Notes under the pieces: generated by a model | Database searches by the model: none | Told to the model about the DNA's origin: nothing | Seen by the model: the letters and a program-made list of their open reading frames with translations, nothing else | Position numbers and translations under genes: made by a program | Shown: positions 26,494-56,848 of the stretch, in pieces | Layout of the letters: every line of letters begins with the position of its first letter | Numbering within the stretch: the first letter of the stretch is position 1 | From: Candidatus Rariloculaceae bacterium | GTDB lineage: Bacteria; Pseudomonadota; Gammaproteobacteria; Steroidobacterales; Rariloculaceae | Assembly (NCBI GenBank): GCA_965205045.1 | Contig: OZ242031.1 | Location: forward strand, 2,268,044 to 2,332,043 | Direction: 5' to 3' | Length of the DNA stretch: 64,000 nt

Positions 26494-28488
26494 TCAGACG
26501 GGATGCCGAACGCGCGTCACGCGAAACTTGAAGTTTTTCGCCGGGCTGAGCTTGGGGAACGGGTTCAGCTTCAGCTTGTAGTTCTTCGGGACCAGCTCGA
26601 GCTCCAGGTGACGCGCGATCAGCAACATGTTCAGGGCCATCTGCAGTTCGGTCCAGCGCCGTCCTCCGCAGATGTGCGTGCCTGTTCCGAACGGCGCGTA
26701 GGCGCCCGCCTGTCTGTGTTCGTTTCGTGGCGGCGCGTACCGCTCGATGTCGAACTTGTCCGGGTCCTTGTAATGCTTCTCCATGAAGTGAGGCGCCGTA
26801 AACGCGATCAGTACCGAACTGTAGGGCGGAACTTCGAGACCATCGACTTCGAACGAGTTCATCGCGGTACGCCGGTGTACCGGTATCACCGGATGCAGCC
26901 GCAGCACTTCCATGGCGAATCGATGGGTAACGTCGATCGCCTCCGGCGTGAGGTCCTTCGCGGTCGGGTCGCCGTCCGCAAAGAGCGCATCGGCTTCGGC
27001 AACGATTTTCTCGTGCAGATCCGGATTCGCCAGCATCTCGTAGATGGCGAATGCCACCTCGCTGCCGGTGTAATGGCCCGCGATGATGGGTGCGATGAAG
27101 GCAAACCCCAGGTCCGTTTCGGGCAGGAACTGCGGGTCGGAGTAGTGCAGATCCATCAGATCGTCCACAAGATCGCGACGCTTGCCCTCGCGTTGCGCAG
27201 GCGTGTGCGCGGCGTGGATCTGGGCGTATAGGTTGAGGATATTCGCCTTGTATCGCTTCATTCGCGGCGTACGGAGCAGAAATTTCGGCACCAGGCCGAA
27301 CACGTGAACCATCAGCGCCCGATACTCGAACGCGAGCAGATCGTCGAGCACCTTCGTCGCTTCCATGCTGACGCTGAGATGCGAGATCTGATCGCCGATC
27401 AATCGCTGGCACGCGGTCTCTCCGGCCATCGTCTGGCCGACGCCCCAGCCGGCGAACGAGCGCCTGGCGAGACGGAAAAGATCATCCATGCGGTCCTCGA
27501 CCACGGCGCGGGAGTTCCCCGCTCGGACGGCCCTGCGCATGCGGAAGTGATCCGCTCCGTCCATGCTGGCGATGGACCGGGCCGTACCCCATTCCTGCTG
27601 AAAGGCTTCGAGATAATCCCGCGTTCGCAGCAGCAGCCGGCCCTTGCGCCCCACCCATCGGTTCAGTTCGGCGCTGGCGAGAACCACGATACTGTTGTCG
27701 CCCGGCGCATCGATTCGGTAGACCGGTCCCAGTTCCTCGCTCACTTCGGCAAAGAACTTGGGAAGATTGCCCGACCGCATCGTGCGCGACTTGAGCATGT
27801 CCAGCACGCTGATCGATGGCATCTTTCGCCTGCGAACCGTGCGATAGGCTTCCGGCGGACGATACGAACTGGCTACCGCGGCCCCGATGGTCCGCCCGAT
27901 GAGGTCCATCCCGCTGAGCAGTTCGATCCGCTTTTCGGCGACTTCGAACTCTTCCGGATCCAGCAGCGTCGGAACGCCTCCGCAGTTGTTCAGCAGCCCG
28001 ACGATGGCGATATCGCGCGGATCCGGAATCTCGTCGGTGAGCAGGACCCGGGTGATTCGGCTCTTGATCTCTTCGCGCTGTTCACCGTCTCCCAATGGAT
28101 AGCGGCCCGACCGCGAGACCTTGTTCGACAGGGACCAGAACCCGCCGGAATGCGAATCGAGAATGCCCTGCTTGGCCAACCGATCGAACGCCGCGTCGCT
28201 GATGGCTTCGGCCCGGCGAGCCGCGATCCGTTCAACCCAGTACTGCGGGCTGTGACTATGCGGGTTGTCGGCGATTGCCTTCAATGTGGGGTCCAGGAGT
28301 TCGTCGCCCGTCGGCGTTGCGTCGATCAGCGTGAGCGTCTCCAGGTCCGAATCGATGCGATTCTCCAGCGCCAGATCCATAAGGACTGCGCCCCCCAGCG
28401 CACAGGACATCTTCCACTCCGGAATGGGAGCGAAGTAGCCCGTGTTCTCGTCGAGCAGCAGCAGCAGAATTTCTTCGGCGAATCTCAT
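26494..28488 (-). CDS. GPP34(GOLPH3)-like N-terminal domain fused to cytochrome P450 (paralogue 1)
   Basis: 664 aa. N-terminus MRFAEEILLLLLDENTGYF...LIDATPTGDELLDPTL...GFWSLS...EIPDPRDI. P450 part has I-helix AGHYTG, ExxR (EVLR) and the Cys loop FGTGTHICGG. Confidence 0.85.
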   Translation of the reverse strand: MRFAEEILLLLLDENTGYFAPIPEWKMSCALGGAVLMDLALENRIDSDLETLTLIDATPTGDELLDPTLKAIADNPHSHSPQYWVERIAARRAEAISDAAFDRLAKQGILDSHSGGFWSLSNKVSRSGRYPLGDGEQREEIKSRITRVLLTDEIPDPRDIAIVGLLNNCGGVPTLLDPEEFEVAEKRIELLSGMDLIGRTIGAAVASSYRPPEAYRTVRRRKMPSISVLDMLKSRTMRSGNLPKFFAEVSEELGPVYRIDAPGDNSIVVLASAELNRWVGRKGRLLLRTRDYLEAFQQEWGTARSIASMDGADHFRMRRAVRAGNSRAVVEDRMDDLFRLARRSFAGWGVGQTMAGETACQRLIGDQISHLSVSMEATKVLDDLLAFEYRALMVHVFGLVPKFLLRTPRMKRYKANILNLYAQIHAAHTPAQREGKRRDLVDDLMDLHYSDPQFLPETDLGFAFIAPIIAGHYTGSEVAFAIYEMLANPDLHEKIVAEADALFADGDPTAKDLTPEAIDVTHRFAMEVLRLHPVIPVHRRTAMNSFEVDGLEVPPYSSVLIAFTAPHFMEKHYKDPDKFDIERYAPPRNEHRQAGAYAPFGTGTHICGGRRWTELQMALNMLLIARHLELELVPKNYKLKLNPFPKLSPAKNFKFRVTRVRHPV

Positions 28489-38188: not shown

Positions 38189-38252
38189 AGTGGGATGACG
38201 CGTGAATCGGCGTTGGGGCCTGCGTTCTCGGATCGGGAAACCGGACCCTAGT

Positions 38253-40526
38253 TTACATCAGCTCCAGGTTGGCGTAGGCGAGGACCAGCCACTTGGTTCC
38301 GGCCATCTCGAAATTCACCTGTACCCGGGCGTGCGAGCCGCTGCCCTCCCAGTCGAGCACGACACCCTCGCCGAACGTGCCGTGGCGGACGCGCTGGCCC
38401 AGCTTCATGGGCGGGCCGTCGCCGCCGACCGGCGCGCCGGACATGGCGCGGTAACGTGCGCCGGACCGCTTGCCGGCGCTCCCGCCGGACGGCCCTCCGA
38501 AGCGCCCGCCGGACGGCCCTCCGAAGCGCCCGCCGGACCGCCCGGCATACCGTTCGCCGCGGTACACGGGCCTGGATACCGACATTCGCTGCCCTTGCTC
38601 CTCCAGCAGGTTGCGGGGAATCTCGCGGATGAACCGGGATGGCGTCGTGTAGCGGTAACTGCCATGAAGCCGGCGCTGTTCGGCGTGGGTCAGGTACAGC
38701 TTGCGTTGCGCCCGGGTCAGGCCCACGTAGCAAAGCCGCCGCTCCTCTTCCAGCCCGCCGACGTCCTCGACGGAGCGCTGATGGGGGAACAGGCCCTCTT
38801 CGAGCCCGCACACGAACACCAGCGGAAACTCCAGGCCCTTGGCCGAATGCATTGTCATGAGCTGAACCGCTTCCTCGTCCGCCCCGGCCTGGGCTTCCCC
38901 GGATTCGAGTACCGCGTAGGAAAGGAATTCATCCAGCGGCGACAGCTCCGAATCTTCGTCGCGTATCAGGCCGCGGGCGGAGTTGGCCAGTTCCTCGAGG
39001 TTCTCCACACGCGCTTCGGCTGTTTCGTCACCGGCGCGTCCGTGATGGGCGAGAAGGCCGCTCTCGTTGTTGACCCGGCTCACCTGCTCGTGGAGAACCA
39101 GGTCCCGGGTTCCGGCTTCCAGGCCGTCCACCAATTGCACGAAGCCCGCGACCGCCCGTTTGGCGCGGCTTGCCAGGTGCCCGTCTTCCAGGCAGTGGGT
39201 GGCTGCGGCCCACAGACTCGATCCCGCCTCCACCGCCCGGGCGCGCACCGCCTCCATGGTCCTGGCGCCCACGCCCCGGGGCGGCCTGTTGACCACCCGG
39301 TCGAAGGACGCGTCGTCGTGCCGGTTGGCGATCAGCCGAAGGTACGCCAGCGCATCCTTGACCTCGGCGCGCTCGAAGAACCTCAGCCCCCCGTAAACGC
39401 GGTAGGGAATGCCGGCGGCCAGCAGCGCCTCCTCGAACACCCGGGACTGTGCGTTGGAGCGGTACAGGACGGCGGCTTCGTCGCGACGGTGCCCCCCCGC
39501 CAGGTATTCGCCGATGCGGTCGATGACGAAGTCCGCTTCGTCGCGTTCGTCGAGGGCGGCATAGAGCGTGATGGGGTCGCCGGCCTTGCCTGCGGTCCAC
39601 AGGTTCTTCCCCATGCGCATCGCGTTATGCGCGATGACGGCATTGGCGGCGTTCAGGATGTTGCCCGACGAGCGGTAGTTCTGCTCCAGGCGCACCACGC
39701 GGGTGCCGGCAAAGTGGCCCTGGAATCCCTGCAGATGCTCCATCCGCGCCCCGCGCCAGCGGAAGATGGACTGATCGTCGTCGCCCACCACGAACGGTGC
39801 GCCCTCCGGCCCGGCCAGGAGTCTCATCCACCGGTACTGGATCGAGTTGGTGTCCTGGAATTCGTCCACCAGGATGTGCTGAAACCGCCGCCGGTACTGC
39901 TCCTTCAACTCCGCCCGTTGCTCCAGCAATTCAAACGCGCGCAGCAGCAACTCGCCGAAGTCCACCACCGAGGCGGCAGCGCACACTTTTTCGTAGCGCG
40001 CGTAGAGGTCGATGAGCCGCTTCCATTGGGTTCGCCCCTCGTCGTCGACACGCTCGGGGCGCAGCCCCTCGTCCTTCTGACGGTTGATGAACCACTGAAC
40101 TTCCTTCGGATCGAATTCACTCCCCCCCGCGCCCAGGTTCTTCAACAGGCGGGTGATCAGCCGCAACTGGTCCTGGGAGTCGATGATCTGAAAGCCCTCC
40201 GCCAGCCCGGTCTCGGCCCAGTGAATCCGCAGCAAGCGATGTGCAAGGCCGTGAAAGGTGCCGATCCAGAAATGACGTGTGGGGAAGCCCAGCAGGTCTT
40301 CGATGCGATGGCGCATCTCCCACGCGGCCTTGTTGGTGAAGGTCACCGCGAACAGGTGCTGGGGCATGACGTCCTCGACCAGGATCAGCCAGGCGATGCG
40401 GTGCACGAGCACACGCGTCTTGCCGCTTCCGGCCCCGGCGAGCACCAGGACGGGTTTGCCGGGAGGCGTGGTCACCGCCTCGCGCTGCGCGTCGTTCAGC
40501 GGATCGAGAATTGCGGTGACGTCCAC
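38253..40526 (-). CDS. uvrD: DNA helicase II (UvrD/Rep SF1 family)
   Basis: 757 aa. LNDAQREAV, motif I AGAGSGKT, VDEFQDTN, and the C-terminal Tudor-like block GQRVRHGTFGEGVVLD. Gly-rich repeat insertion GGRFGGPSGGRFGGPSGG. Confidence 0.93.
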   Translation of the reverse strand: MDVTAILDPLNDAQREAVTTPPGKPVLVLAGAGSGKTRVLVHRIAWLILVEDVMPQHLFAVTFTNKAAWEMRHRIEDLLGFPTRHFWIGTFHGLAHRLLRIHWAETGLAEGFQIIDSQDQLRLITRLLKNLGAGGSEFDPKEVQWFINRQKDEGLRPERVDDEGRTQWKRLIDLYARYEKVCAAASVVDFGELLLRAFELLEQRAELKEQYRRRFQHILVDEFQDTNSIQYRWMRLLAGPEGAPFVVGDDDQSIFRWRGARMEHLQGFQGHFAGTRVVRLEQNYRSSGNILNAANAVIAHNAMRMGKNLWTAGKAGDPITLYAALDERDEADFVIDRIGEYLAGGHRRDEAAVLYRSNAQSRVFEEALLAAGIPYRVYGGLRFFERAEVKDALAYLRLIANRHDDASFDRVVNRPPRGVGARTMEAVRARAVEAGSSLWAAATHCLEDGHLASRAKRAVAGFVQLVDGLEAGTRDLVLHEQVSRVNNESGLLAHHGRAGDETAEARVENLEELANSARGLIRDEDSELSPLDEFLSYAVLESGEAQAGADEEAVQLMTMHSAKGLEFPLVFVCGLEEGLFPHQRSVEDVGGLEEERRLCYVGLTRAQRKLYLTHAEQRRLHGSYRYTTPSRFIREIPRNLLEEQGQRMSVSRPVYRGERYAGRSGGRFGGPSGGRFGGPSGGSAGKRSGARYRAMSGAPVGGDGPPMKLGQRVRHGTFGEGVVLDWEGSGSHARVQVNFEMAGTKWLVLAYANLELM

Positions 40527-40556
40527 GTCGAACCCCGGACTCGTTCGGTCTGGCGG

Positions 40557-41471
40557 CTATTCCGGCCAGAACACGGGGATGTAGTGATCGATCAGCAGGA
40601 ACCCGAACAGCGCCGCCAGGTACGTGATGGAATAGTTGAACGTCCTCATGGGCATGCTGCTGTCGTCGCCGTATTTCAGACGGATGCCGTGATAGAGAAA
40701 TCCGCCCCCCAGCAGCAGCGCCGCAAACAGGTACAGGGTCCCGCTCATCCCCGTCAGGTAGGGGAGCAGGGTGACCAGGACCAGCAGGCAGGTGTAGTAC
40801 AGCACGAACGACTTGGTGAACTCGGGACCGTGGGTGACCGGCAGCATCGGTACGCCGGCACGGACGTAGTCTTCCTTGCGGGCCACGGCAAGCGCCCAGA
40901 AGTGCGGCGGTGTCCAGGTGAAGACGATCAGGAACAGCAGCAGGGCATGGCCGCTGATCTCGTTGGTCACCGCCGTCCAGCCCAGCAGGGGCGGCGCCGC
41001 GCCGGCCGCCCCGCCGATGACGATGTTCTGGGGCGTCGCCCGCTTCAGATACACCGTGTACACCACCGCATACCCCACCATGGAAAGGAAGGTCAGCGCC
41101 GCGGTCAGCGGATTCACCAGCAGGACCAGAATGCAGATGCCCGAGAGGCCCAGCACCATGGCGAAGGCGATGGCATCGCGCTCCTCGATTCGCCCGGTGG
41201 GCAGGGGGCGGAGGCGGGTTCGGGCCATCTTCGCGTCCAGGCGCTGGTCGAGCACGTGATTCAGGGTGGCGCCGCAGGCCGAGGCCAGTCCGATACCCAG
41301 ACTGGCGAAAACCAGGATCTGCCAGGAGACCATGCCGGGTTGCGCCAGGAACATGCCCACGATGGCCGTGAACACCAGCAGCCTGACGACGCCCGGCTTG
41401 GTCAGCGCATAGTAGTCCCGCCACCGGGCGGGCACGCGCTCACTGGTAATGTCCAATTCTCTGGTTTGCAT
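40557..41471 (-). CDS. cyoE: protohaem IX farnesyltransferase (haem O synthase)
   Basis: UbiA-family TM pattern. WRDYYALTKPGVV and NHVLDQRLDAKMARTRLRPLP. An alternative GTG start at 41435 would remove the 32-nt overlap with ctaA. Confidence 0.9.
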   Translation of the reverse strand: MQTRELDITSERVPARWRDYYALTKPGVVRLLVFTAIVGMFLAQPGMVSWQILVFASLGIGLASACGATLNHVLDQRLDAKMARTRLRPLPTGRIEERDAIAFAMVLGLSGICILVLLVNPLTAALTFLSMVGYAVVYTVYLKRATPQNIVIGGAAGAAPPLLGWTAVTNEISGHALLLFLIVFTWTPPHFWALAVARKEDYVRAGVPMLPVTHGPEFTKSFVLYYTCLLVLVTLLPYLTGMSGTLYLFAALLLGGGFLYHGIRLKYGDDSSMPMRTFNYSITYLAALFGFLLIDHYIPVFWPE

Positions 41472-42456
41472 TCAGAACCGCCAAAAGCAACAGTGCCGCC
41501 ACTCCGTTATGCGCAACGGCGACGGCCAGGGGAACACCGTAGACGATGATACTCGCGCCGAGCACAAACTGTACCCCGAGCGCGGCCAGGACCGCGATGC
41601 CGTCCGGCCTAAGCCGGGGCCGCCGGATCATCATCCATCCCAGCACCGCCAGCACCAGGGTCGCTGCGATGGCGCCGAGCCGGTGGCTGAAGTGAATCGC
41701 GACCCGGGCGGGATTGTCCAACACTCCGCCCTCGTAGTCCACGCCCAGTTCCCGCCACAGCACGAAGCCCTCGCGGAAGTCGGCCACCGGCGGCCACCAG
41801 CGAGTCTGGCAGGTCGGGAAATCCGGGCAGGCCAGCGCCGCGTAGTTGGCGCTCGTCCAGCCGCCCAGAGCGATCTGCACGGCCAGGATCGCCAATGCGG
41901 CAACCCCTGCGCGCGGCAGCCACCGCGACGCCATGCGTGCAGGGCGTGCCGGCCGTGCCGGCCGGGATGGATCGTCACGTGACGAAAACAGGCGGTGCCA
42001 TTCCCCGAGCCAGAAAATGAGCCCCAGCGTCGTCAGACCGCCCAGCAGGTGCGCCATCACGATGACCGGCTGCAGCAGCAGCGTGACTGTCCACATGCCC
42101 AGCAGTCCCTGGAAGATCACGACCGCGAGCAGGACGTGGGGAAGGCGGGTGGGCTGTTCCGGATCCCGCCGGTTGGCCCAGGCCAGAACGGACAGGATCA
42201 GGCAGAGCAGGCCCAGTCCGGTGGCCAGGTAGCGGTGGATCATCTCCCGCCACGCCTTGCCCACGTCCAGCGGCCGCTCCGGGAATGCCTCGGCGGCCTC
42301 CCGGGTGCTCTCCGTAACGACGAGCTGCCCATAGCAGCCCGGCCAGTCGGGGCAGCCCAGCCCGGCGTCGGTCAGGCGCACCCATGCGCCGATGACCACG
42401 ACCAGCAGGGCCAGCACCGTGCCGGTGCGGGCCAGGCGCAAGAAAACTGTCGTCAT
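41440..42456 (-). CDS. ctaA: haem A synthase (COX15/CtaA)
   Basis: 338 aa. GAWVRLTDAGLGCPDWPGCYG and conserved His residues in TM helices (HRYLA, AHLLGG, FSHRLGA, VAHNG). Confidence 0.9.
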   Translation of the reverse strand: MTTVFLRLARTGTVLALLVVVIGAWVRLTDAGLGCPDWPGCYGQLVVTESTREAAEAFPERPLDVGKAWREMIHRYLATGLGLLCLILSVLAWANRRDPEQPTRLPHVLLAVVIFQGLLGMWTVTLLLQPVIVMAHLLGGLTTLGLIFWLGEWHRLFSSRDDPSRPARPARPARMASRWLPRAGVAALAILAVQIALGGWTSANYAALACPDFPTCQTRWWPPVADFREGFVLWRELGVDYEGGVLDNPARVAIHFSHRLGAIAATLVLAVLGWMMIRRPRLRPDGIAVLAALGVQFVLGASIIVYGVPLAVAVAHNGVAALLLLAVLNANQRIGHYQ

Positions 42457-42594: not shown

Positions 42595-43902
42595 TCAATC
42601 GCTGTAGAGATCATCCGAGCTTAGTCGGGGCCGCACGGGCTGTGTGGGAGGCTGGTACGTTGGAACCAAACCTGAGCCAACTGTATCCGGTACATCGGCC
42701 AGCCGTCGGGCTAGACCGTAAGCGACCAGCAGGAATGTTGGATCGCCTTGTAATTCCGCTCCGTTCTCCTCAACCAGATCCGACGGTGCCCCCGGGTCGG
42801 CGGATGGCTCGGATTCGTTCAGCCAGACTCGCCTGTGTTCGATCACGCGTTCGCGGACCGAATCGATCTTGCTTCCGCCGCCCAGGAAGAACATGCGGCC
42901 AATGTGATTCCAAGCAAGGTCGCTCCTGTGCCTTTGAAACGCTTCCACGGAAGCAAGCTCCAGAACCTTCGCGATTCGATCAAGAACATGACCGATACCA
43001 GTTCTGACTTGGCTGCCCCAACAAACATGTATCAGCTCGCTTTCCCGTCCACGCACCTCGGCCTTGGTGGGCAATCCCAGATGATCGGCGAGCGCTTCGT
43101 CAATTGCGTCGCAGCCCGGTGGCGCGCATGCGTCGCCCCAAAACACCAACCTGTTCTTTACGCGCAGACCTCCCAAACGATGTTCGGTGATATGGAACCA
43201 GGACGCGCTCGTTGTGCCGGCCCCAACGTCAACGCAAGCATACCTTCCGTCCTCTATGTCTGGAGAGGAGTAAGCCCAGTACAAGGCTGCCTCAGCTTCC
43301 GAACGCACCCAGTCGCGCGGCTGTGAGGATTTGGAATCGGCGAGTTTTTTTCGAGCGGATGCCAGCGCGGACTTCGCGTCCTCCACGGCGATACCATTTA
43401 GCAGATCGGCGCCGCCAAGTAGCTGGAACGCTTCTCTGGCGACATTGACGAACATCGTCTGCAATTCATCGTCTTCGAGTAATGCCATTGGTGCGCCGAG
43501 GGTGACTCCGAATGATGGTTCTGCCTGAAAGCGCTCAGCGTAGCGGACAGCGGTTTCTTGGCCGAGTTGAATCAAGTGGCCGACATACAATGTCGCGAGG
43601 TCACGCGCGTCCAATCCGCCGAAGGGGAGTTCGGCCAGGTCGCCGTAGAAGTCATCTGGGTAGGCACAAAGCATTTTCAGCGATCGATACACGCGATTGT
43701 CGTCGCGCACGCTAGCCTCTGCGTCGAATCCGAATCGAATGAAGCCGTCGTCGATAACGACCGTGGACGGAATCAGAAAATCACCATCTCCACCGCATTC
43801 CAGCGACGGGCGCACCGGAAAGCTGCGATCTTCTTCTTGCGAGCCGTAGTCGGTGAGCACGAGCTTCGATCTGCTTGTACCGTAGTCGACACCCAGCCAC
43901 AT
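42595..43902 (-). CDS. actin/Hsp70-fold (ASKHA) ATPase, unknown family
   Basis: 435 aa from ATG 43902, which is preceded by AAAGGAGGGAA. Phosphate-1 motif LGVDYGTSRSKL, phosphate-2 motif CVDVGAGTTSASW, adenosine motif FFLGGGSKIDSV. Low G+C. An in-frame ATG at 44091 is an alternative start. Confidence 0.75.
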   Translation of the reverse strand: MWLGVDYGTSRSKLVLTDYGSQEEDRSFPVRPSLECGGDGDFLIPSTVVIDDGFIRFGFDAEASVRDDNRVYRSLKMLCAYPDDFYGDLAELPFGGLDARDLATLYVGHLIQLGQETAVRYAERFQAEPSFGVTLGAPMALLEDDELQTMFVNVAREAFQLLGGADLLNGIAVEDAKSALASARKKLADSKSSQPRDWVRSEAEAALYWAYSSPDIEDGRYACVDVGAGTTSASWFHITEHRLGGLRVKNRLVFWGDACAPPGCDAIDEALADHLGLPTKAEVRGRESELIHVCWGSQVRTGIGHVLDRIAKVLELASVEAFQRHRSDLAWNHIGRMFFLGGGSKIDSVRERVIEHRRVWLNESEPSADPGAPSDLVEENGAELQGDPTFLLVAYGLARRLADVPDTVGSGLVPTYQPPTQPVRPRLSSDDLYSD

Positions 43903-44102
43903 TTCCCTCCTTTTGCGAGGGCGTCGATCCTTGTCGCGAAAGGCCGCAGTTCCAGACAGGAACCCTTGCGGCTTGGCTGTTGGCATGATCGACCGGTCCC
44001 GAGTCTCAGGACTAAGTGCTGTTTCTTTCGCCTCTGCTGACATAAGGGATCGTCGACCCAGAGGTCGGACTAGTCTGGAAAGCCAACCCATGCCGCTATT
44101 CC

Positions 44103-47100
44103 TTAATACCCTGATTCGATATGCAAGATGCCTGCCGCTAGAAGTTCCGTCTCCAGCCGCGCATCGACTCCGTCTCGAAGTAAACTGAGGTTCGCGTCCC
44201 GTTCGCAAATCGCATGGCCGACTTTCGCTTCCGCCATCCTTATTGCGAACGGTGCCGCGCCCTTAGCGTTCAACGTGTCCAAACGCATTTGCGCCTCCTC
44301 AATCCTGTGGTTCAGCGCGGATGTAAGCGTAGTTCGCCGTCGTTCCAGACGAACCTTGTTCAATTCGATTTCCCTTGTGTTCACTTGCCCACGAATCGAC
44401 GCAATATGTTCTTCCAATCGAAAACGCAGCTTATCGACCAACACTTCTTCAACGGAAGGTACCGGTTCCAATGAAATCGCCGAAGTTAACATTGAAAGAA
44501 GCAGGTCTTCGGAAGCGGTTTCCTCCAGTGGGGGATTTTCGCCGTCAAAGAAAACCGGAACAAGCCATGCGCGCGGTCGAACGCCTTCCATCTCGAAACG
44601 GTGTATCTCGAACGCATAGTCCCCTGCAATGCCAACGGCTGCATCTACCAGATCGGCGGACCGCATCGCGAGTGCGAATGACCGTGCGGACGTGTCTCGA
44701 TTGCGCTCGCGCTCGCTTGTTACCATCTTGACCAGCGGGTGTCGCGAGTGCACTAGCTCGGCGTTGGGATGTCTGATGGCCGCGTTCTGGTCGAAAGTGG
44801 CTTTCACGGTTCCCGTTTCGATCGTTCGACCGAATCGGATTGCTTCAGGGTCGGATCCACTGGCCTTGAGTACCAACTGGCCAGCTCCAGGCGGTGTACG
44901 AATTTCCTCGACTTGCGTAATCATGCTTTGTGGGAACCGGCTTCCCGCGAATCGATCGCTTAGAAACTTTGCGACATAGGCGTATATCTCCCGGCTGGAA
45001 GGAACCTTTCGTCTACCGATCAGGCCTTCGATCTCGTCGAGAAAAGACTGGTCGGCCGCCATCAAACTGTCGGCGCTATTCGCGAGACTCTCTGCCTGCA
45101 GGTGCTGATCTTTCGTTGCGTCAGCCGCTTGGTCAGCTCGCGATTTCTGATCTTCTGGAGAAAGCTCGCCTCGTAGAGCCATGGAAGCCAGATTTTCGAC
45201 ACGTTCGCCCAGAATCGGATCGATTTCGCCTATTGTGTTCTCGAATATTCCAATACGCTGGTAGAGACGATACAAGATTCGGTCTTCGATCGTGTCCTCG
45301 GCTACGAGGTTCAGAATGACAATTTTGTCGGCGCGCTGGCCGATTCTGTCGAGGCGTCCAATACGTTGTTCAACAACCATCGGATTCCAAGGCAAGTCGT
45401 AGTTGACCACCACCGCGGCAAACTGCAAGTCCAGCCCTTCGCTGCCAACCTCGGACGAGAGCAGGACGCGGACTGCCGGATTCTCCGCGAATTCGCCGAT
45501 CCTCGTTTCTCGCGCGGGAATGGCGATATCGCCATTGATAAGGCGACAATCGACTCCGTCGCGAGTAAGGCATTCACGGAGGTACCGAAGTGTCGGCTTG
45601 AAGAACGAAAAGATGACTATCTTGCGGGGTGGGTCGCCGTTGTCCTTGTCTTCACGCCAAATGTTTCGCAGTTTCCGCCTTAAGCCCGCGTACTTTGTGT
45701 CTTTCTCCGTCAGCTTGTGGAGCGCAGAGGTGATTCGATTGAGTTCGCTCTCAACTGAGAATTGATTGAATCCCCGAACCTCTGCGAATGCGGCAGAAGT
45801 ATCCTGAGCCTCGCTAAAGCCGTCGGAAATGCGATGAAAGAGCGACTGGCGGGACTGCAGCTTCGCTCGAAACTGCCCTGCTGCTGCCGGGATGCAGCTT
45901 GCCGCTGCCCGATAAGCTTGCAATGCGGCCATGGTCTGTCCCCAGCCATAATGATCGGGGTGGACTATTGCGCAAAGTTCGGCCACCGAGTCGTAGAACT
46001 CTTGTTCAGTCGGGGAATACCTGACGGAGATAACGAATGGTTTGCGAATCGGTGGATTCTCGATGACGTCAGCCTTACGGGTACGACTGATAATTTTCCC
46101 GGTCAGGGAAAGCTCATTGATGTCCCGTTGAAGCTCGACAAGCTCGGATCGATCAAGGCTGGTGGCCGCCTCACAGCGCGAAGTCAGTTTTGAGAAGTAC
46201 TCGGTTTGCGTCAATGATCGAGTGTGTTCATTTGAGCGCATCGCGTTCAGCGATTCCAGAGCGGCAACCTTGGCGGGGGGATTTCGCCGGATCGCCGTGG
46301 TAGCACGTACTATAGGTCGGTTCGCTTCGCACTGTTTCTCGAACAGATTGCCGTCCCGGAATTCAAAGGGATCCAGGATGTTCAGCAATCGGAACAAGTT
46401 CTCCAAGCTGGTCTGCACGGGCGTTGCGGTTAGCATGAGCATGTGATCCGCGCACGCGGACAGGGCTTTGCCTAAGCGATGTTGAAGCGTGTCGGGGTTG
46501 CGCATTCGATGAGCTTCATCCACGACGACGATATCGAACATGGGTTGCACTTCACCAAGGAACGCGATGACGTCCCTATTTCGGGCCGACTCAAGCGAGA
46601 TAATCCAGGAAAAGCGATTCAATCCGCGATTCGACTCCAGACGCAGTTTCCAGGCGAGCAAGTCCTTTGCGCTGACAACGTCAAAGTTCTCACAGAAACG
46701 GCGTTCCATCTCGTCTTTCCATTTCGTACGAAGACGGGAGGGAACGACGAGCAGCATACGGTCCAAACTAGTCCGGGACTTGAGTTCCCGGATGATATAG
46801 CCGGCTTCAATAGTCTTGCCTAGACCAACATCGTCAGCTATAAGCAGGCGCTTGCGCGGGTTTTCGAGAAACTTGAGCAATGGCTTGAATTGAAAGGGAT
46901 AAAAGGTAGCCTTTGCCGAACCGAATGAAGCCGCTATGGGAGAGGGCGGCCGGCGCAGTCGCTCGAACGTCATGAGCGAGCGAAACGCCGAATCTCCCGC
47001 CAAACGGTTTTCCCGGATGTCATCCCAGGGCGTGGAGTCCGTTGGCAATGACTCCAAATCATTCTCGGCGACACCCTTTGTAGCGTTGCCGAACTGAACT

Positions 47101-47219
47101 CGATAGATCCAGTCGCCTGTAGCTTCCTGAAGGTAGCCTTTATCTCGAATGACTCCGACGGCGTCAGGCCGGGACTTGCGGCGGATAACGTCACCGACGC
47201 CAAAAAGGCCGCTTTTCAC
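44103..47219 (-). CDS. SNF2-family helicase (1038 aa) with N-terminal SH3/Tudor-like module and a long unassigned C-terminal region
   Basis: LLIADDVGLGKTIEAG (motif I), VVDEAHRMRN (II), LTATPVQTSLENL (III), GSEGLDLQ and QRIGRLDRIGQ (V/VI). Low G+C. Confidence 0.9.
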   Translation of the reverse strand: MKSGLFGVGDVIRRKSRPDAVGVIRDKGYLQEATGDWIYRVQFGNATKGVAENDLESLPTDSTPWDDIRENRLAGDSAFRSLMTFERLRRPPSPIAASFGSAKATFYPFQFKPLLKFLENPRKRLLIADDVGLGKTIEAGYIIRELKSRTSLDRMLLVVPSRLRTKWKDEMERRFCENFDVVSAKDLLAWKLRLESNRGLNRFSWIISLESARNRDVIAFLGEVQPMFDIVVVDEAHRMRNPDTLQHRLGKALSACADHMLMLTATPVQTSLENLFRLLNILDPFEFRDGNLFEKQCEANRPIVRATTAIRRNPPAKVAALESLNAMRSNEHTRSLTQTEYFSKLTSRCEAATSLDRSELVELQRDINELSLTGKIISRTRKADVIENPPIRKPFVISVRYSPTEQEFYDSVAELCAIVHPDHYGWGQTMAALQAYRAAASCIPAAAGQFRAKLQSRQSLFHRISDGFSEAQDTSAAFAEVRGFNQFSVESELNRITSALHKLTEKDTKYAGLRRKLRNIWREDKDNGDPPRKIVIFSFFKPTLRYLRECLTRDGVDCRLINGDIAIPARETRIGEFAENPAVRVLLSSEVGSEGLDLQFAAVVVNYDLPWNPMVVEQRIGRLDRIGQRADKIVILNLVAEDTIEDRILYRLYQRIGIFENTIGEIDPILGERVENLASMALRGELSPEDQKSRADQAADATKDQHLQAESLANSADSLMAADQSFLDEIEGLIGRRKVPSSREIYAYVAKFLSDRFAGSRFPQSMITQVEEIRTPPGAGQLVLKASGSDPEAIRFGRTIETGTVKATFDQNAAIRHPNAELVHSRHPLVKMVTSERERNRDTSARSFALAMRSADLVDAAVGIAGDYAFEIHRFEMEGVRPRAWLVPVFFDGENPPLEETASEDLLLSMLTSAISLEPVPSVEEVLVDKLRFRLEEHIASIRGQVNTREIELNKVRLERRRTTLTSALNHRIEEAQMRLDTLNAKGAAPFAIRMAEAKVGHAICERDANLSLLRDGVDARLETELLAAGILHIESGY

Positions 47220-47348: not shown

Positions 47349-47546
47349 TCACTCGTTCAACCAGTTTTCAAGGCGAAGTTTAGGGACGCGCCCAAACTCG
47401 CGCAAATTGGCCGTGACCAGGACGAGATCCGCCGAGAGCGCGTGCGCGGCGATGAGGAGGTCATTGGGGCCGATCATTCCCGCCGCGCGTCCTTGCGGGT
47501 GCCGGACCACGTCGGAAATAATGACTGTGTCTAGCAAATGGATCAC
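47349..47546 (-). pseudogene. VapC (PIN-domain toxin) relic with an internal deletion
   Basis: The 65 aa join a VapC N-terminus (MIHLLDTVIISDVVRHP) directly to a VapC C-terminus (IGPNDLLIAAHAL...LVTANLREFGRVPKLRLENW). About 65 central residues are missing and there is no vapB. Confidence 0.65.
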
Positions 47547-47639: not shown

Positions 47640-47944
47640 CTCCCTCTTGAAATCCCGCCTCAAGTACGCTTCAATATGCCGTGATTTCAGGCCGGGCGCT
47701 ACCTGCGCGAGCACGTCGCGATGCACTGCAGGCCCAACACTTTCAAGCACTACGGCCTGATGGTGCGCAAGCACATCGTGCCGGGCCTTGCAGACCTGCG
47801 CGTGTCGGAGGTGCGGCGTAACCACATCCTCATGTTCCAGTACGGGCTGAGCGACATGCCCACGGTTCGGATTCAGCGGAGCTCGGGATTCGCCACGTTG
47901 AATTCTTCGAGGGGAATCGCCTACAGTGAGAAGATTCCAAACTA
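47640..47944 (+). pseudogene. tyrosine-integrase fragment (core-binding/SAM-like region only), cut by the IS
   Basis: ...YLREHVAMHCRPNTFKHYGLMVRKHIVPGLADLRVSEVRRNHILMFQYGLSDMP resembles the N-terminal core-binding domain of phage-type integrases. No catalytic domain follows. Confidence 0.5.
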
Positions 47945-48798
47945 GGGCGTGTTAACACTAGCAGGCAAAAACGTGGTATCCTTCGTCGCGTTGTCCAGGA
48001 CGCGGAAACCGGAGGAAAATCAGGGATATGGAACTCACCGAAGCCCAATTCGAACGGATCGGGCCGCTGCTGCCGGTGCAGCGCGGAAACGTGAGCCTGC
48101 CGAACATCCAGGTGCTCAACGCGATCCTGTACGTGGCCGAGCACGGCTGCAAGTGGCGCGGGCTGCCCGAAAGGTTCGGCAATTGGCACACCGTCTACAC
48201 GCGGATGAACCGCTGGTCGAAGAACGGCGTTCTGGATCGCGTGTTCGAGCACCTGCAACGGGAGCGGCTCGTGCGCGTCAAGGTGGAGGCGGCGGGGCTG
48301 GACAGCACCGGCGTCAAGGTGCATCCGGACGGCACGGGGGCGGAAAAAAAAACGGCCCCCAATCCATCGGCAAGTCCCGTGGGGGCTGGACCACCAAGAT
48401 TCATATGGTTGCCGCGGATGACCGGACCGCCCTCGCGTTCTCGCTCTCTCCAGGCCAGGCGCACGACGCGCCCGAAGGGCGCAAGTTGCTGAGAGGCATG
48501 GAGAAACCGTCGAACAGCCCGGCGCTGGTGATGGACCGCGCGTATGAGGACGACGCCACCCGCCAACTGGTTCTGGACCTGGGATTCGTGCCGGTCGTGC
48601 CGCCGAAGAGCAACCGCGTCGACCCTTGGGAGTACGATCGGGAGATGTACAAGCGGCGCAATGAGGTCGAGCGGCTGTTCCGGCGCCTGAAGGGGTTCCG
48701 GCGCATCTTCTCGCGCTTCGAGAAACTCGATGTCGTATTCCTCGGCTTCGTCGTCTTCGTGCTCATCGTCGACGCGTTGCTGTAGTGTTAACAGGCCC
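47945..48798 (+). mobile_element. IS5-family insertion sequence (IS427-group-like), 854 bp, apparently intact
   Basis: Terminal IRs gggcgtgttaacact / rc gggcctgttaacact. Flanking TA (or CTA) direct repeat at 47943-47944 and 48799-48800. Two overlapping transposase frames. Confidence 0.85.
48028..48785 (+). CDS. IS5-family transposase (orfA/orfB joined by a probable programmed -1 frameshift at an A9 run, 48344-48352)
   Basis: orfA MELTEAQFERIGPLLP...HGCKWRGLPERFGNWHTVYTRMNRWSKNGV. orfB ...GGWTTKIHMVAADD...VMDRAYEDD...YKRRNEVERLFRRLKGFRRIFSRFEK, giving DDE residues in the usual IS5 context. Confidence 0.85.
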
Positions 48799-52851: not shown

Positions 52852-54867
52852 TCATTCGGGGTTCTCCGGGCCGGGGTTCTCGGGCGCGACGCGCAGCAGC
52901 CAATCGCCGTCTTCTTCTCCGGTGGGCACGACGCAGGCCATCAGCCCCGCCGCGCGCTCGGCGGACAGCGTTTTTTCGCTGGAGGGTTCGCCGGCGGGTC
53001 CGGCGGGGGTCGCGCCGCCGGCGGGTTCGCCGCCGGGTTCGGGGTGGCTTGCGTGCCTGGGGAACGCCCCGCCCGCGCCGCGGCAGGAGGCGTAGGCGGG
53101 GGCGTCCTTCCAGTTCTCGTCCGCGTCCCACAGGCACAGGTCGAAGTCCCGCCCGTTGTCGAGCCGGTAGGCCAGGTGCGTGCTCTCGCCGAGGGCGTCC
53201 AGTTCCCCCTGATGGGGAACGAAGCAGTACGGCGAATGGATGGCGCGCGCGCGCCGCCCGACGATCGGCGTGGCGCTCGCCCCGGTGTCTGGCGGATCGA
53301 TGCCGCCGGGGTCCGTGCCGCCGCCGGGTTCGCCGGCGTCATCGCCGGGTTCGCGGGCCGTGGAGTCCGCGATGGTCACCACCACCCAATGCCGGGCGTG
53401 CGCCCTCACCTCCCGCGGAAGCGATTCCAGCGCCATCTCCACCGTGAAGGTCTCGTCGTCGGCGTCCCCGTCGTGCGCCGTCGCGACCTCGGCCGTGCCG
53501 GAGGCGGACCCGGCCGGGATCCGGATGGAGGCGAGCGCGCCGAAGTCGCCGGGCTCCGCCGTGACCGCGAACAGCCCCACCGGGATCGTAACGTCCGCCG
53601 CCAGCGCCGCGGTCAGCGTCACCCTCACGGTCACCGCGGACCCCTCGGCCACCGGGTTCGGGGATGCCGAGATCGAGACCGTGGGCGCGGCCGGGTCGTC
53701 GCCGTCGTCGGCGTCGCCGTCGGCGATGGTCACCGTCACCGAGGCGGGCGTGCCCGCCGACACCGAGGCGGGCAGCGAACCCAGCGCCACCGTGAAGGTC
53801 TCGTCCTCGTCGTCGCCGTCGTGCGCCGTCGCGACCGTGCCCGCGCCGGAGGCGGACCCGGCCGGGATCCGGATGGAGGCGAGCGCGCCGTAGTCGCCGG
53901 GCTCCGCCGTGCCCGCGGTCAGCGTCACCGGGATCGACACGTCGGCCGCCAGCGCCGCGGACAGCGTCGCGGTCACCGTCACCGGGGAGCCCTCCGCCAC
54001 CGTGGCCGGGGAGGCCGACAGCCGGACCGCGGGGACGGCCGGGGGGCGGGGGTCGGAGATGGTCACCGTCGTCTCGCTGCCCGCGTTGGGCACTTCGTAG
54101 GGCGGGTCGTCGCCGGCGGGGGCGCTCAGCAGGAAGGACGCGGTCTCCTCGCCCTCCGCGGCCCCGTCTGCCACGGCGGACAGCGTGAAGGTGGCGCTGG
54201 AGGCGTTGGCCGGCAGCGTCAGTATCCTCAACCCGCGGCGCCCGCCCACCCCGGTCAGGGCATAGTCGTTTTCATCGGCCGATAAGGGGATTGTCGCCGA
54301 GACGTAGACGCTGCTGGCCTCGGCCAGTTGCGGGGAGATGTTGACCGTCAGCGTGACGCTCTCGCCCTCGTGGACGCTGTAGGCGGCCTTGGCGAAGCCG
54401 ATCCGCGGCCGCGCCGGGGGCGGGTCGGCGGGTGCGGCCCGGGGCGTGACGGTCGCCGCCGCGCTGAGGGCGCTGCAGTTCGCGCCGGAGGTCGAGCCGC
54501 CCGCGCACGCCCTGATCCGGGCCCAGTAGGTCGTCCCGTTGGAGATCGTGATGGCGGAGCCGCTGACGATCGTCTTGCTCGTGGCCGTGCCGGGCCTCGC
54601 GAAGACCGCGGCCCATGCCCCGCCCTGGGGGGCGTACCGGATGACGTAGGTGCCGGCGCCCGGCGAGGCGTTCCACCTCGCGGTGAACTGCCCGTCGCCC
54701 GCGGCGAGCGTCAAGCCCGTCGGCGTGGGCGGCGCCTGGGCCCGCGCGGGGGAGGCGGGCAGGGCGATGGCGCCCAGCAGCGCCAGGGCGGCCGGAAGGA
54801 GCGCGGAACGGCGCGGCGGGGCGGTTGCGGCGCGGGCGCGGCGCCCCCGGCTGGCGGACCGGGCCAC
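52852..54867 (-). CDS. secreted FN3 + triple Calx-beta-like repeat protein
   Basis: Start placed at GTG 54867 (VARSASRGRRARAATAPPRRSALLPAALALLGAIALPASPARAQA signal peptide). FN3-like GLTLAAGDGQFTARWNASPGAGTYVIRY. Three repeats of the type VAEGS.VTVT..LSAALAADV.IPV...AGTAEPGDYGAL...IPAGSASG...TAHDGD.DDETFTV. Confidence 0.75.
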   Translation of the reverse strand: MARSASRGRRARAATAPPRRSALLPAALALLGAIALPASPARAQAPPTPTGLTLAAGDGQFTARWNASPGAGTYVIRYAPQGGAWAAVFARPGTATSKTIVSGSAITISNGTTYWARIRACAGGSTSGANCSALSAAATVTPRAAPADPPPARPRIGFAKAAYSVHEGESVTLTVNISPQLAEASSVYVSATIPLSADENDYALTGVGGRRGLRILTLPANASSATFTLSAVADGAAEGEETASFLLSAPAGDDPPYEVPNAGSETTVTISDPRPPAVPAVRLSASPATVAEGSPVTVTATLSAALAADVSIPVTLTAGTAEPGDYGALASIRIPAGSASGAGTVATAHDGDDEDETFTVALGSLPASVSAGTPASVTVTIADGDADDGDDPAAPTVSISASPNPVAEGSAVTVRVTLTAALAADVTIPVGLFAVTAEPGDFGALASIRIPAGSASGTAEVATAHDGDADDETFTVEMALESLPREVRAHARHWVVVTIADSTAREPGDDAGEPGGGTDPGGIDPPDTGASATPIVGRRARAIHSPYCFVPHQGELDALGESTHLAYRLDNGRDFDLCLWDADENWKDAPAYASCRGAGGAFPRHASHPEPGGEPAGGATPAGPAGEPSSEKTLSAERAAGLMACVVPTGEEDGDWLLRVAPENPGPENPE

Positions 54868-54880
54868 GGGGTCAGGCCCC

Positions 54881-54985
54881 GGCTCGGCTCGGCTCGGCTC
54901 GGCTCGGCTCGGCTCGGCTCGGCTCGGCTCGGCTCGGCTCGGCTCGGCTCGGCTCGGCTCGGCTCGGCTCGGCTCGGCTCGGCTC
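54881..54985. repeat. pentanucleotide microsatellite (GGCTC)21
   Basis: 21 uninterrupted GGCTC units. On the minus strand they translate as (AEPSR)n in the TTG-initiated extension of the surface-protein ORF. The tract starts 14 bp upstream of the likely GTG start. Confidence 0.97.
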
Positions 54986-55374
54986 GGCAATTATAACCGA
55001 ATTCCAAGCCGGGATTGTCACGGACTCATTGACATTCATGCTCGATCCCCCCGCCTCACGACATCCCTTTCCGCTCATTGTGGATGCCCGTATATTCACC
55101 GCGCGGCGCGGCCTTGTCAACCGCCCGCCAGGCCGCCCGCCAGGCCATAACCAATCGTTTCATCTGCCTCGCAGAATTTGCCGCAGTTCCTCGACGGTAT
55201 CGGACGGAAGTCCGGTTCCGCGTGCCGTGGCGCCCCAAGTTTCGCGGGCGGCACAAGCGACGGCGAAGGTTCGCATATGTCCGAGGTCGCGGGGCGAGAA
55301 TCCCATGATGTCCGGGAGCTTCTTGAAGATCGTGAGACGGTCGGTCGATGGTATTGAAGCCCCAGCCCCGGTAA

Positions 55375-55837
55375 CTCGGATTGAGGGTGCGCCGCAACGG
55401 GCGCAAGACGTGGGTCATGCACCGGCGCTGCAACGGCTCCGTCATCAAGCGGACGCTCGGCAAGCTGGACGCGCTGACGGTCGAGGATGCGCGGCACGCG
55501 GCGCGGTCTCGCCGGACCAACTGCCCCTGGGTGTTCGCTTCACCCTGCGGCGAGCCTATAAGGTGGACAAGGCATGGAACGCGATTCGCAAGGGGGCGGG
55601 GCTGACGAAGCTCCGCATTCACGATCTGAGGCATTCGCAGGTGTCGACCGCTGTGCGGGCGGCGCTGCTTGGGGCGGACGATTTGGCGAAGCTCTGTGCG
55701 GTCTTGCGCCAGCACGAAGCGGAGAATCCGGTTTGCGTCGCAGCGGTGCGCCTGCTCGGGCATCGACGCGCCTCCACAACAAAGCGGCACGTCCAGATCG
55801 ACGACGCTACGCTGACAGATCGACGACGCTACGCTGA
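55375..55837 (+). pseudogene. tyrosine integrase, heavily decayed (deletions and frameshifts)
   Basis: Arm-binding-type N-terminus LRVRRNGRKTWVMHRRCNGSVIKRTLGKLDALTVEDARHAA. It jumps to WVFASPCGEPI, then in another frame WNAIRKGAGLTKLRIHDLRHS and LLGHRRASTTKRH (catalytic H-x-x-R, and His where the Tyr context is expected). Confidence 0.7.
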
Positions 55838-55963
55838 GCCAAGCCGCTGAGCGGGTGGCGGTAGAGATTCAGCGGAAGCTATGTCATATTGGCGGCCAGC
55901 GGTGACTGCAGCACAATTTGCACTGACCCATTGGCAACGGCCCCACAAAATAGATGCGACGAT

Positions 55964-56848
55964 ATGGCAAAGGTAATTGGATTCATAAGCGAAAAGGGGG
56001 GAACAGGCAAGACTACGGCCTGCTACCACCTTGCTGTTGCGCTCCAACGGGACCACGCCAAGCGCATACTGGTAGTTGATACGGACTATCAAAGGGGCGG
56101 GATTACTGGTCGGTTTTTTCCCGAGCTAATAGAGCCATTCGGCGCTGGCGAAATATCCGGAACGACTTTGTTCCACAAATTCCAAGAACTTTACAGCGCT
56201 GGAGTTCGCTCTCCAGAAGTAGGAATCAAAAGATGGAGGGACAGTATTGATGTGATCGTTTCCGATCCCAGACTTTCTACTGTTACAGAGGACAAACTGC
56301 CCAGCACCCATAACATTCGAGAGAACAATAAATCGCTTTGGAAGCATCTACAGGTGATTGATTATGTGCTGGATGCTGTTAAGGAAAACTATGACTATAT
56401 TCTGATTGATAGTCATCCTGAAGTGTCTGATGCATTACGTTCGGTCATATATTCATCCGACTACTGTGTTTCGCCGGTAAAGTTTGATCGTCAATCGTCA
56501 ATTGGCGTCGCCACCGTAATTGGTGAAATCAACAATGTGAATGCAGACATGGAGCTTATTAAGAATAGCCTGGATGGTGACATACAATACTCAGATACAA
56601 TTTTTTCCGGTTCGATGGGAATGATGGCCCGCGAATATGGCGGAGATCTTAAGTGGTCGGAATATTTGGAGCGCAATCGACTAAGGCGGACAGGAAGCGT
56701 ATTTGATGTCTATATTACTGAAGGCGACGGCTTGCGGAAAGCGTTATTGGAAAAGTGTCCGGTGTATGATGTCGGCGGCAATAACGCCAGCAAGCAAGCG
56801 CAGCAGTTTCGCAGCTTGACTATCGAGTTTTTGGAGAAATGCCCATGA
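55964..56848 (+). CDS. ParA/MinD-family ATPase
   Basis: 294 aa from ATG 55964. Deviant Walker A ISEKGGTGKTT, then VVDTDYQ and LIDSHPE. Very low G+C. Confidence 0.85.
   Translation: MAKVIGFISEKGGTGKTTACYHLAVALQRDHAKRILVVDTDYQRGGITGRFFPELIEPFGAGEISGTTLFHKFQELYSAGVRSPEVGIKRWRDSIDVIVSDPRLSTVTEDKLPSTHNIRENNKSLWKHLQVIDYVLDAVKENYDYILIDSHPEVSDALRSVIYSSDYCVSPVKFDRQSSIGVATVIGEINNVNADMELIKNSLDGDIQYSDTIFSGSMGMMAREYGGDLKWSEYLERNRLRRTGSVFDVYITEGDGLRKALLEKCPVYDVGGNNASKQAQQFRSLTIEFLEKCP

Follow-up and report, generated by a model that had tools for sequence, protein, structure and literature searches.

The window analysed here, a 64,000-nucleotide (nt) stretch of the genome of a Candidatus Rariloculaceae bacterium (GenBank assembly GCA_965205045.1, contig OZ242031.1, positions 2,268,044 to 2,332,043), carries inside an insert of low G+C content a cassette of two intact genes on the minus strand, which we designate A (encoding a RapA/DrmD-like Swi2/Snf2 ATPase) and B (encoding an Hsp70-like ATPase without a substrate-binding domain). 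The two very probably form an obligate two-protein unit, and the pair is predicted to be a good candidate for a new defence system. We read the cassette as a self-contained, horizontally transferred two-protein module that acts against invading DNA (phages and plasmids), and assign to this reading a probability of about 0.5.

The association between the two genes was found to be conserved. Loci were collected by pattern scans for B in genomes and metagenomes (at least nine and at least 11 loci, respectively) and by exact-protein look-ups, and four short contigs without informative upstream sequence were left out. In each of the 21 informative loci found through B a Snf2 homologue is located directly upstream on the same strand, even where the identity of B falls to 24-30%, and four more look-ups (L035, L036, L037 and L038) showed the same arrangement. 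The two genes are separated by 7-22 nt or overlap by 4 nt. When the search started from Snf2, a B-like neighbour was found at five of seven loci: two metagenomic loci (~41% identity), conjugative plasmids of Sphingobium and Aminobacter, and a plasmid of Leptolyngbya on which the gene order is reversed, the B-like gene (744 aa) lying upstream of Snf2. The exceptions are plasmids of Ensifer and Rhizobium, where Snf2 is found with a ~1035-aa protein resembling TmtA and sacsin. The pairwise identities of A and B correlate in a mirror-tree comparison (r = 0.93 over 210 pairs), and an all-against-all comparison of the flanking open reading frames (ORFs) in the 21 loci gave no third conserved gene, nor a conserved small gene upstream of A. 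Co-localisation in other genomes, on which an earlier reading of the window from its letters only (the sequence-only reading) had staked its proposal of a two-component system, was thus borne out.

The hosts belong to the Gammaproteobacteria, Binatia, Acidobacteriota, Planctomycetota, Cyanobacteria and Alphaproteobacteria and include a metagenome-assembled genome (MAG) labelled Deltaproteobacteria, a patchy spread that is typical of horizontal transfer. The composition of the cassette is foreign: G+C is 0.52-0.58 across ~42.5-48 kb and 0.63-0.70 in the neighbouring DNA on each side. The difference from the adjacent ctaA noticed before also holds at third codon positions (GC3), where A and B both reach 0.60 versus 0.84 in ctaA, 0.88 in ctaB and 0.89 in the AcrB gene. 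Because the GC3 of both genes is this far from the 0.84-0.89 of the flanking genes, we conclude that the cassette was acquired horizontally.

In Pfam (2025), NCBIfam (June 2026) and PADLOC (2023) the family of B, the constant partner of A, has no name. A word-indexed search returned 160 relatives of B, every one of them unnamed, and the representatives (at 50% identity) in an exhaustive scan with a profile numbered 2877 at E <=1e-3, of which 1686 reach E <=1e-10 and 396 reach E <=1e-30.

Several of the collected loci deviate from the simple two-gene form. Two copies in Vicinamibacterales MAGs have decayed and are broken by insertions; in one (L004) Snf2 lies in four pieces over ~9.6 kb, and in the other (L005) most of Snf2 has been lost and B is split in two. 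On plasmid p1 of Sphingobium sp. CAP-1 (L018, 9001-17989) we found a four-gene variant of the module, consisting of Snf2 (1037 aa), a B-like gene (587 aa, with a 4-nt overlap), a 533-aa protein and an 822-aa PLD-domain protein that resembles ZacB and PDC-M27B. This may be an effector-bearing form, and from its PLD gene it seems that the A-B pair can take on a nuclease effector. On the Ensifer and Rhizobium plasmids (L019, 8034-18290; L021, 8108-14975) the Snf2 lineage is combined with a ~180-aa protein and the ~1035-aa protein related to Tiamat TmtA and sacsin (HATPase), with a RecB-like nuclease in L019 as well; the grouping seems to be one more unnamed combination.

The genes within 10 kb of the pair were surveyed in the relatives, and the signal they give is qualitative. 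Relatives often reside within defence islands or on mobile elements, as the sequence-only reading had anticipated from the surroundings of the cassette itself. Examples are a Hachiman HamA with its helicase, two restriction endonucleases and AbiEii (L020); a type IV restriction enzyme overlapping the start of Snf2, an HNH and UvrD-like pair and a type ISP enzyme (L015); a type IIG restriction-modification (R-M) system, RmuC, HNH, Mrr_N and a DruE-like helicase (L016); an Eco57I-type methylase, a MazE-PIN pair, Phd, AAA_14/DUF4143 and a 1200-aa UvrD-like helicase (L010); a Dcm methylase with HATPase_c_3 genes and a GIY-YIG gene (L011); SIR2, GmrSD and HNH (L035); a PLD gene with a second helicase (L036); and an AAA_15 and DUF4276 pair, MazE and an integrase (L037). 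Transposases are present beside several copies of the pair. This genomic context tips the balance slightly towards defence against mobile DNA as the function of the pair. L016 was also considered as a DISARM locus and rejected, since PADLOC attributes its Eco57I-type methylase to type IIG R-M and its DUF1998 helicase to DruE.

The module could also serve the mobile element that carries it, by helping incoming DNA to establish itself (e.g. by displacing nucleoid proteins or restriction proteins, by remodelling complexes that silence it, or by assisting replication or recombination). Relaxase, MobC and ParAB genes adjoin divergent members on the conjugative plasmids Sphingobium p1 and Aminobacter pAA03, one copy is on the Leptolyngbya plasmid, and transposases or integrases border many of the chromosomal copies; moreover, a pair with neither a nuclease nor a self/non-self marker would suit such a role. 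Nevertheless, defence systems commonly ride such elements too, several chromosomal copies are located in dense R-M, abortive infection (Abi) or Hachiman clusters and not by transfer genes, and the nearest tested relatives of A (DrmD, ArmA and ietH) act in defence (PMC13463889, PMC13069673). We therefore consider service to the mobile element unlikely.

Gene A encodes a Swi2/Snf2 ATPase, as both Pfam lobes score above their gathering thresholds (SNF2-rel_dom PF00176, 91.4 bits for a cutoff of 24.9; Helicase_C PF00271, 71.3 bits for a cutoff of 23.5) and motifs I, II, III and VI are intact. Each of the motifs originally read from the letters (DDVGLGKT, DEAHRMRN, LTATPVQ, GSEGLDLQ and QRIGRLDRIGQ) is present in the translation. 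GLGKT, DEAH, TATP and QRxGRxxRxGQ are invariant across 36 homologues, as are the individual residues G132, G134, K135, T136, D234, E235, A236 and H237 and, further on, Q618, R619, G621, R622, D624 and R625. An AlphaFold2 (AF2) model made from these 36 homologues (predicted local distance difference test, pLDDT, 82; predicted template-modelling score, pTM, 0.70) shows an N-terminal beta-barrel, the two RecA-like lobes of the Snf2 core and a C-terminal region made up of a helical bundle, an alpha/beta domain (residues 771-913), a coiled-coil hairpin (residues 925-1015) and a terminal beta-strand. The barrel, with strands at residues 11-14, 21-30, 37-43, 46-51 and 55-57 (pLDDT ~85) and with P18, G22, F43 and G44 nearly invariant in the homologues, coincides with the SH3/Tudor-like module of ~60 aa suspected earlier at this end of the protein.

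The C-terminal ~400 aa of A, in which the sequence-only reading had recognised no motif, are in fact a DrmD-type C-terminal region (PADLOC PDLC02623, NCBIfam DrmD). When the C-terminal 359 residues are taken alone, the DrmD model PDLC02623 is the sole PADLOC match (E 7e-12), and Pfam finds neither a nuclease nor any other domain in the region. For the whole protein the same PADLOC model, which is 1040 positions long, covers residues 9-990 with its positions 6-981 (530 bits, E 2e-159), followed at 252 bits or less by BrxHI/II (252), other DrmD models, HmaA, DpdE and ZorD. The NCBIfam equivalog model for DrmD (DISARM_DrmD, NF038317) yields 339.7 bits against a cutoff of 610, with its best stretch at residues 496-982; judged by these profiles A is related to DrmD, yet is not a DrmD equivalog. 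It also falls outside the RapA equivalog family of NCBIfam (PRK04914, 199.2 bits against a cutoff of 576). RapA is the top match in the PDB by sequence (E 1e-39), and full-length RapA is the first match in Foldseek (E 7e-35 over ~1080 columns, template-modelling (TM) score 0.49-0.57, ~19% identity), ahead of other Snf2 structures (E ~1e-17 over ~600-700 columns). DrmD, BrxHII and ArmA have been placed in the RapA-like Snf2 lineage (10.1101/2025.09.15.676423; PMC13463889), and A belongs to this DrmD/BrxHII/ArmA lineage, which is already known from defence systems. The description of A as a generic SNF2 protein with a novel tail has thus to be replaced by one of likeness to DrmD and RapA along the full length. 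From these comparisons A is predicted to be a translocase on double-stranded DNA of the RapA/DrmD/ArmA type with an intact ATPase site.

This likeness brings in a second alternative, in which A would be an accessory RapA-like transcription factor that binds RNA polymerase via its Tudor-like barrel and recycles or rescues stalled polymerase, with the Hsp70-like protein as cofactor and stress tolerance as the benefit. RapA is by far the best structural match and the best PDB sequence match of A, the NCBIfam RapA model gives it 199 bits, and N-terminal Tudor-like barrels touch RNA polymerase in RapA, Mfd and CarD. However, the RapA score lies far under its cutoff, the distribution is patchy across phyla, with decaying copies (L004 and L005) and a foreign GC3, copies are found on mobile elements and in defence islands, and DrmD and ArmA are RapA-like yet defensive. 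Taken together, a role in transcription seems decidedly unlikely.

With DrmD as the first and BrxHI/II as the second PADLOC match of A, and with decayed elements adjoining the cassette, A might alternatively be an orphan DrmD or BrxHII left over from a degenerate DISARM, BREX or ARMADA system, with B as a chance neighbour. We found none of the DISARM core components DrmA (helicase), DrmB (DUF1998) and DrmC (PLD) in the window flanks of the cassette, and these are not conserved in the 21 loci. The same holds for DrmMI or a PglX-like protein: the insert contains no adenine methyltransferase (DrmMI, PglX-like or ArmB), and the only N6_Mtase of the window is HsdM, ~28 kb away. Moreover, Snf2 and B lie together at 21/21 and 5/7 of the loci found through B and Snf2, respectively, both genes are intact with invariant catalytic residues, and the DUF1998 helicase of L016 is DruE-like and not conserved elsewhere. 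The idea of a remnant is thereby largely refuted and very improbable.

Gene B is contained in an ORF on the minus strand at 42595-44208. It probably starts at ATG 44091 (498 aa), 11 nt past the stop codon of A, rather than at ATG 43902 (435 aa), because homologues align upstream of ATG 43902 (TAKPQGFLS in B and TAKPQRFLS in homologues) and share the N-terminal extension. The sequence-only reading had taken the shorter start and noted a near-perfect Shine-Dalgarno sequence before it; AAGGAGG does precede ATG 43902, but the alignments favour the longer protein. The extension often opens with a basic amphipathic MWxWLxRLL stretch and bears an (R/G)FLS motif, both of which recur in homologues, and at least 25 aa precede the phosphate-1 motif in 123 of 198 family members. 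At the other end, the protein has a proline-rich tail with the family consensus DVPxxxxPS...D-[DE]-[LIY]-Y-[SP]-[KD] (its end can also be written [DE]-[DE]-[LIY]-Y-[SP]-[KD]). A tyrosine occupies position -3 in 106 of 172 full-length members, and pLDDT drops to 70-76 across the tail. The additional N- and C-terminal parts of longer relatives gave no informative domain in Pfam, only weak zinc-finger matches.

The three ASKHA motifs noted earlier (GVDYGTSRSK, VDVGAGTTS and FLGGGSK) were found in the translation and their catalytic residues are conserved; in an alignment of 38 sequences, GxDxGT(S)xSK, the lysine in YRSLKM, WVRSEAEAA, DVGAGTT, LGGGS and VAYGL are invariant or nearly so. No match was obtained in Pfam and NCBIfam scans, and B is not a member of the Pfam Hsp70 family (PF00012), as it has no match to that model and no C-terminal substrate-binding domain. 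A profile of the B family does detect the nucleotide-binding domain (NBD) of DnaK (E 7e-4), its motifs aligning to IDLGTT, the K70 region, DLGGGTFD and VGGSTRMP. The mapping of residues from B to DnaK was taken from this HMMER alignment; an hhalign comparison with an approximate E. coli DnaK NBD query covered only the N-terminal 55 columns and was not used for mapping. The AF2 model of B (pLDDT 92, pTM 0.91) gave in Foldseek a top 50 of PDB matches that are all NBDs of Hsp70, Hsp110 or DnaK (E 5e-14 to 3e-12, TM 0.46-0.59, ~14% identity, probability 1.00). By this fold, and by DxGT(S/T), DxGxGTT and GGGS being invariant or nearly so, B is a member of the ASKHA superfamily. The chain stops ~40 residues beyond the VAYG helix that closes the Hsp70 NBD, and B therefore lacks a substrate-binding domain. 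We infer that B is an ATP-binding and ATP-hydrolysing nucleotide switch of the Hsp70 type without a client-binding domain. That B would be a cytomotive actin-like filament (of the ParM, AlfA or MreB type) segregating DNA with Snf2 as adaptor, as its ASKHA fold, a weak MreB_Mbl match of the related PDC-M61B (E 1e-4) and the plasmid location of some copies might suggest, is hardly credible, as there is no ParM, MreB or actin among those top 50 structural matches, the B profile meets ParM and actin-like proteins (E ~1), and likewise MreB, at chance level, and most copies are chromosomal.

How such a pair might act can be outlined speculatively. B would dock on A via its conserved terminal peptides, candidate contacts being those of the proline-rich tail of B with the SH3-like barrel of A or of the NBD cleft of B with the coiled coil of A; this docking is a conjecture. 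Gated by ATP, B could then work as a sensor or switch and license the Snf2 motor upon an infection cue; the motor would next translocate on the foreign DNA and, in a manner similar to the removal of RNA polymerase by RapA, strip off or stall complexes of replication or transcription. Since the core pair has no nuclease, clearance would need host nucleases or added effectors, such as the PLD protein of the Sphingobium variant. The specific steps of docking and eviction are far less certain than the assignment to defence. Tentatively, and with less confidence than we place in the general reading, we propose an unnamed but widespread immune system in which a RapA/DrmD-type Snf2 motor, gated by an Hsp70-like ATPase that lacks a substrate-binding domain, evicts or stalls the machinery of the invader; the system would have no nuclease or methyltransferase of its own.

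Several observations weigh against a defence module. At two loci (L013 and L038) the pair is found among metabolic and housekeeping genes with no defence neighbours. Searches for B with tblastn in plasmid and phage collections gave no match. In the core pair, profile scans recognised no nuclease, methyltransferase, other effector or self/non-self marker. The resemblance of A to full-length RapA fits a role in transcription as well, and it is from context alone that we infer a defence activity.

An immune system gated in this way would give prokaryotes their first described case of a functional Snf2-ASKHA partnership. RapA-like Snf2 proteins (DrmD, BrxHII, ArmA and ietH) recur in anti-phage systems, and here such a motor has a single constant partner, which makes A-B a minimal system to ask what the motor senses and does. 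Current annotation tools would label the locus an orphan 'DrmD' and miss the partner B. An active pair would add a nuclease-free two-ATPase design to the defence repertoire, and assign a role to those Hsp70-like proteins that have no domain besides the nucleotide-binding one.

The positions of the cassette, its parts and the surrounding genes are given in the table below. The flanks were as first described, with the backbone gene ctaA on one side and a VapC relic, an integrase fragment and an insertion sequence (IS) on the other, the relic and the integrase fragment being recognised by eye. The flanking ORFs of the cassette are ctaA, ctaB (also on the left, beyond the insert edge), the IS transposase and a sortilin/BNR protein. 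The window contains no tRNA gene as a landmark of an integration site, and a scan for promoters and terminators gave one site on the plus strand and no terminators, fewer than in shuffled sequence.

Positions in the window of the A-B cassette, its flanking genes and the type I R-M operon
Feature	Positions	Strand	Details
481-aa ORF co-oriented with the type I R-M operon	10156-11601	minus	no Pfam match
HsdS	11611-12801	minus	G+C dips to 0.48
HsdM	12798-14318	minus	
HsdR	14318-17722	minus	
WYL-domain regulator of the type I R-M operon	17719-18576	minus	
ctaA	41440-42456	minus	backbone gene, left insert edge; Pfam COX15-CtaA, E 5e-77
Gene B, Hsp70-NBD-like (ASKHA) ATPase without substrate-binding domain	42595-44091	minus	498 aa from ATG 44091
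B, proline-rich C-terminal tail	42598-42705	minus	ends in acidic-aromatic SSDDLYSD
B, adenosine motif GGGS	42871-42882	minus	
B, phosphate-2 motif DVGAGTT	43210-43230	minus	
B, E202	43297-43299	minus	435-aa numbering
B, K76	43675-43677	minus	435-aa numbering
B, phosphate-1 motif DYGTSRSK	43864-43887	minus	
B, N-terminal extension	43903-44091	minus	basic amphipathic start MGWLSRLVRPLGRR, low-complexity linker, GFLS motif
A-B junction	44092-44102	minus	11 nt; Shine-Dalgarno-like AAGGA (44100-44104) shares letters with the TAA stop codon of A
Gene A, RapA/DrmD-like Swi2/Snf2 ATPase	44103-47219	minus	1038 aa, GTG start
A, DrmD-type C-terminal region	44106-45239	minus	residues 661-1038
A, coiled-coil hairpin	44175-44447	minus	AF2 model
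A, Snf2 ATPase core	45240-46907	minus	residues ~105-660
A, motif VI QRIGRLDRIGQ	45336-45368	minus	
A, DEAH	46509-46520	minus	
A, Walker A GLGKT	46812-46826	minus	
A, five-stranded beta-barrel (SH3/Tudor-like)	47049-47189	minus	N-terminal, residues 11-57, AF2 model
PIN/VapC C-terminal relic	47349-47546	minus	just upstream of A; 65-aa ORF that includes IGPNDLLIAAHALSADLVLVTANLREFGRVP
Tyrosine-integrase N-terminal fragment	47721-47945	plus	74-aa ORF
IS element DDE transposase	47949-48785	plus	right insert edge; Pfam DDE_Tnp_1, E 4e-13

Elsewhere in the window we found a second defence locus, a type I R-M operon on the minus strand (10156-18576). A 664-aa ORF (26494-28488, minus) combines GPP34 (Golgi phosphoprotein 3-like) and cytochrome P450 domains in an unusual fusion. 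A 712-aa ORF with LapA/Calx-beta repeats (52852-54990, minus, 76% G+C) is adjoined by a ParA/MinD-like AAA_31 gene in a patch of 47% G+C (55889-56848, plus), and this sharp compositional mosaic around 52852-56848 suggests further insertions. A 1115-aa ORF that runs antisense to ctaB and its neighbours (38202-41549, plus) has no Pfam match and is probably a spurious ORF of high-G+C DNA.

Several known systems resemble the cassette in part. Class 1 DISARM consists of DrmA, DrmB and DrmC together with DrmD and DrmMI (10.1101/2021.12.28.474362), and ARMADA of a YprA/DUF1998 helicase, a BrxHII/RapA-like helicase and a PglX-like methylase (10.1101/2025.09.15.676423). The cassette belongs to neither, because their non-Snf2 components are absent from the window and not conserved among the relatives. 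What A has in common with DrmD, ArmA and BrxHII is its whole architecture, the RapA-like fold and a seat in defence islands. The partners differ: those motors work with a methyltransferase of the PglX/DrmMI type and a YprA/DUF1998 helicase, whereas the only constant partner of A is the Hsp70-like ATPase. In the defence systems that were tested the RapA-like Snf2 protein is required, as for DrmD in class 1 DISARM (10.1101/2021.12.28.474362), ArmA in ARMADA II (PMC13463889) and ietH in ietHAS (PMC13069673). The last of these (also known as Liu-DS4) consists of ietAS and the DrmD-like Snf2 protein ietH, so that Snf2 was recruited as a module into an unrelated defence operon (PMC13069673); its partners are, however, a toxin-antitoxin pair of a protease and an ATPase, with no Hsp70-like protein, unlike in A-B. 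E. coli RapA (HepA) shares with A the N-terminal beta-barrel, the Snf2 core and the C-terminal domain, but it is a single-gene, vertically inherited housekeeping factor that recycles RNA polymerase and has no Hsp70-like partner, whereas A has B. Moreover, RapA carries two N-terminal barrels and the model of A only one.

B shares with the NBD of Hsp70/DnaK the phosphate-1, phosphate-2, adenosine and VAYG motifs and the equivalents of K70 and E171. Hsp70-like proteins were predicted before in conflict systems, namely CnuD of CoCoNuT (PMC11090510) and the GTPase-tubulin-HSP70 systems (PMC7159879), and HSP70 proteins without a peptide-binding domain were noted in such systems (PMC7159879). Nevertheless, the ATPase motifs of CnuD were described as degenerate (PMC11090510), whereas those of B are well conserved, and the partner in these systems is a McrBC protein or a GTPase, whereas that of B is a Snf2 motor. 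A further relative is the PADLOC candidate PDC-M61, of which PDC-M61B is a distant ASKHA relative of B. The likeness extends to gene organisation, with two genes per operon, the ASKHA one in second place and overlapping the first. Two proteins of the PDC-M61B type are detected by the profile of B (E 3e-16 and 7e-13), with scores of ~277 bits against the PDC-M61B model itself; the match of B of the window to that model (E 7e-5) is confined to ~65 N-terminal residues (positions 117-187 of the 588 in the profile), and B so falls outside that family. The partner PDC-M61A (~485 aa) has no Snf2 domain and no informative Pfam domain, whereas the partner of B is Snf2. Complete PDC-M61 A and B pairs were seen on viral or prophage contigs of IMG/VR (L033, 8287-11380; L034, 8338-11383).

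In eukaryotes, the remodellers INO80, SWR1, SWI/SNF and RSC likewise combine a Snf2 motor with an ASKHA-fold protein (actin or Arp), and a loose echo of this pairing had been suggested for the cassette. The helical hairpin in the model of A could in principle dock a partner, but its position is C-terminal and that of the eukaryotic HSA helix N-terminal. Since B is Hsp70-like, with no actin or Arp in its top 50 Foldseek matches, only the superfold is shared, and the comparison points to an analogy at that level, with common descent of the two pairings not indicated. As suggested earlier, profile libraries and the searchable literature hold no named system for the pair, and Snf2 combined with an Hsp70-like protein was found neither in the literature searched nor in the model libraries. 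Because the lineage of the motor is known from defence and two-gene candidates are common in defence islands, the cassette is not categorically new; it is the pairing of such a motor with B that appears to be undescribed.

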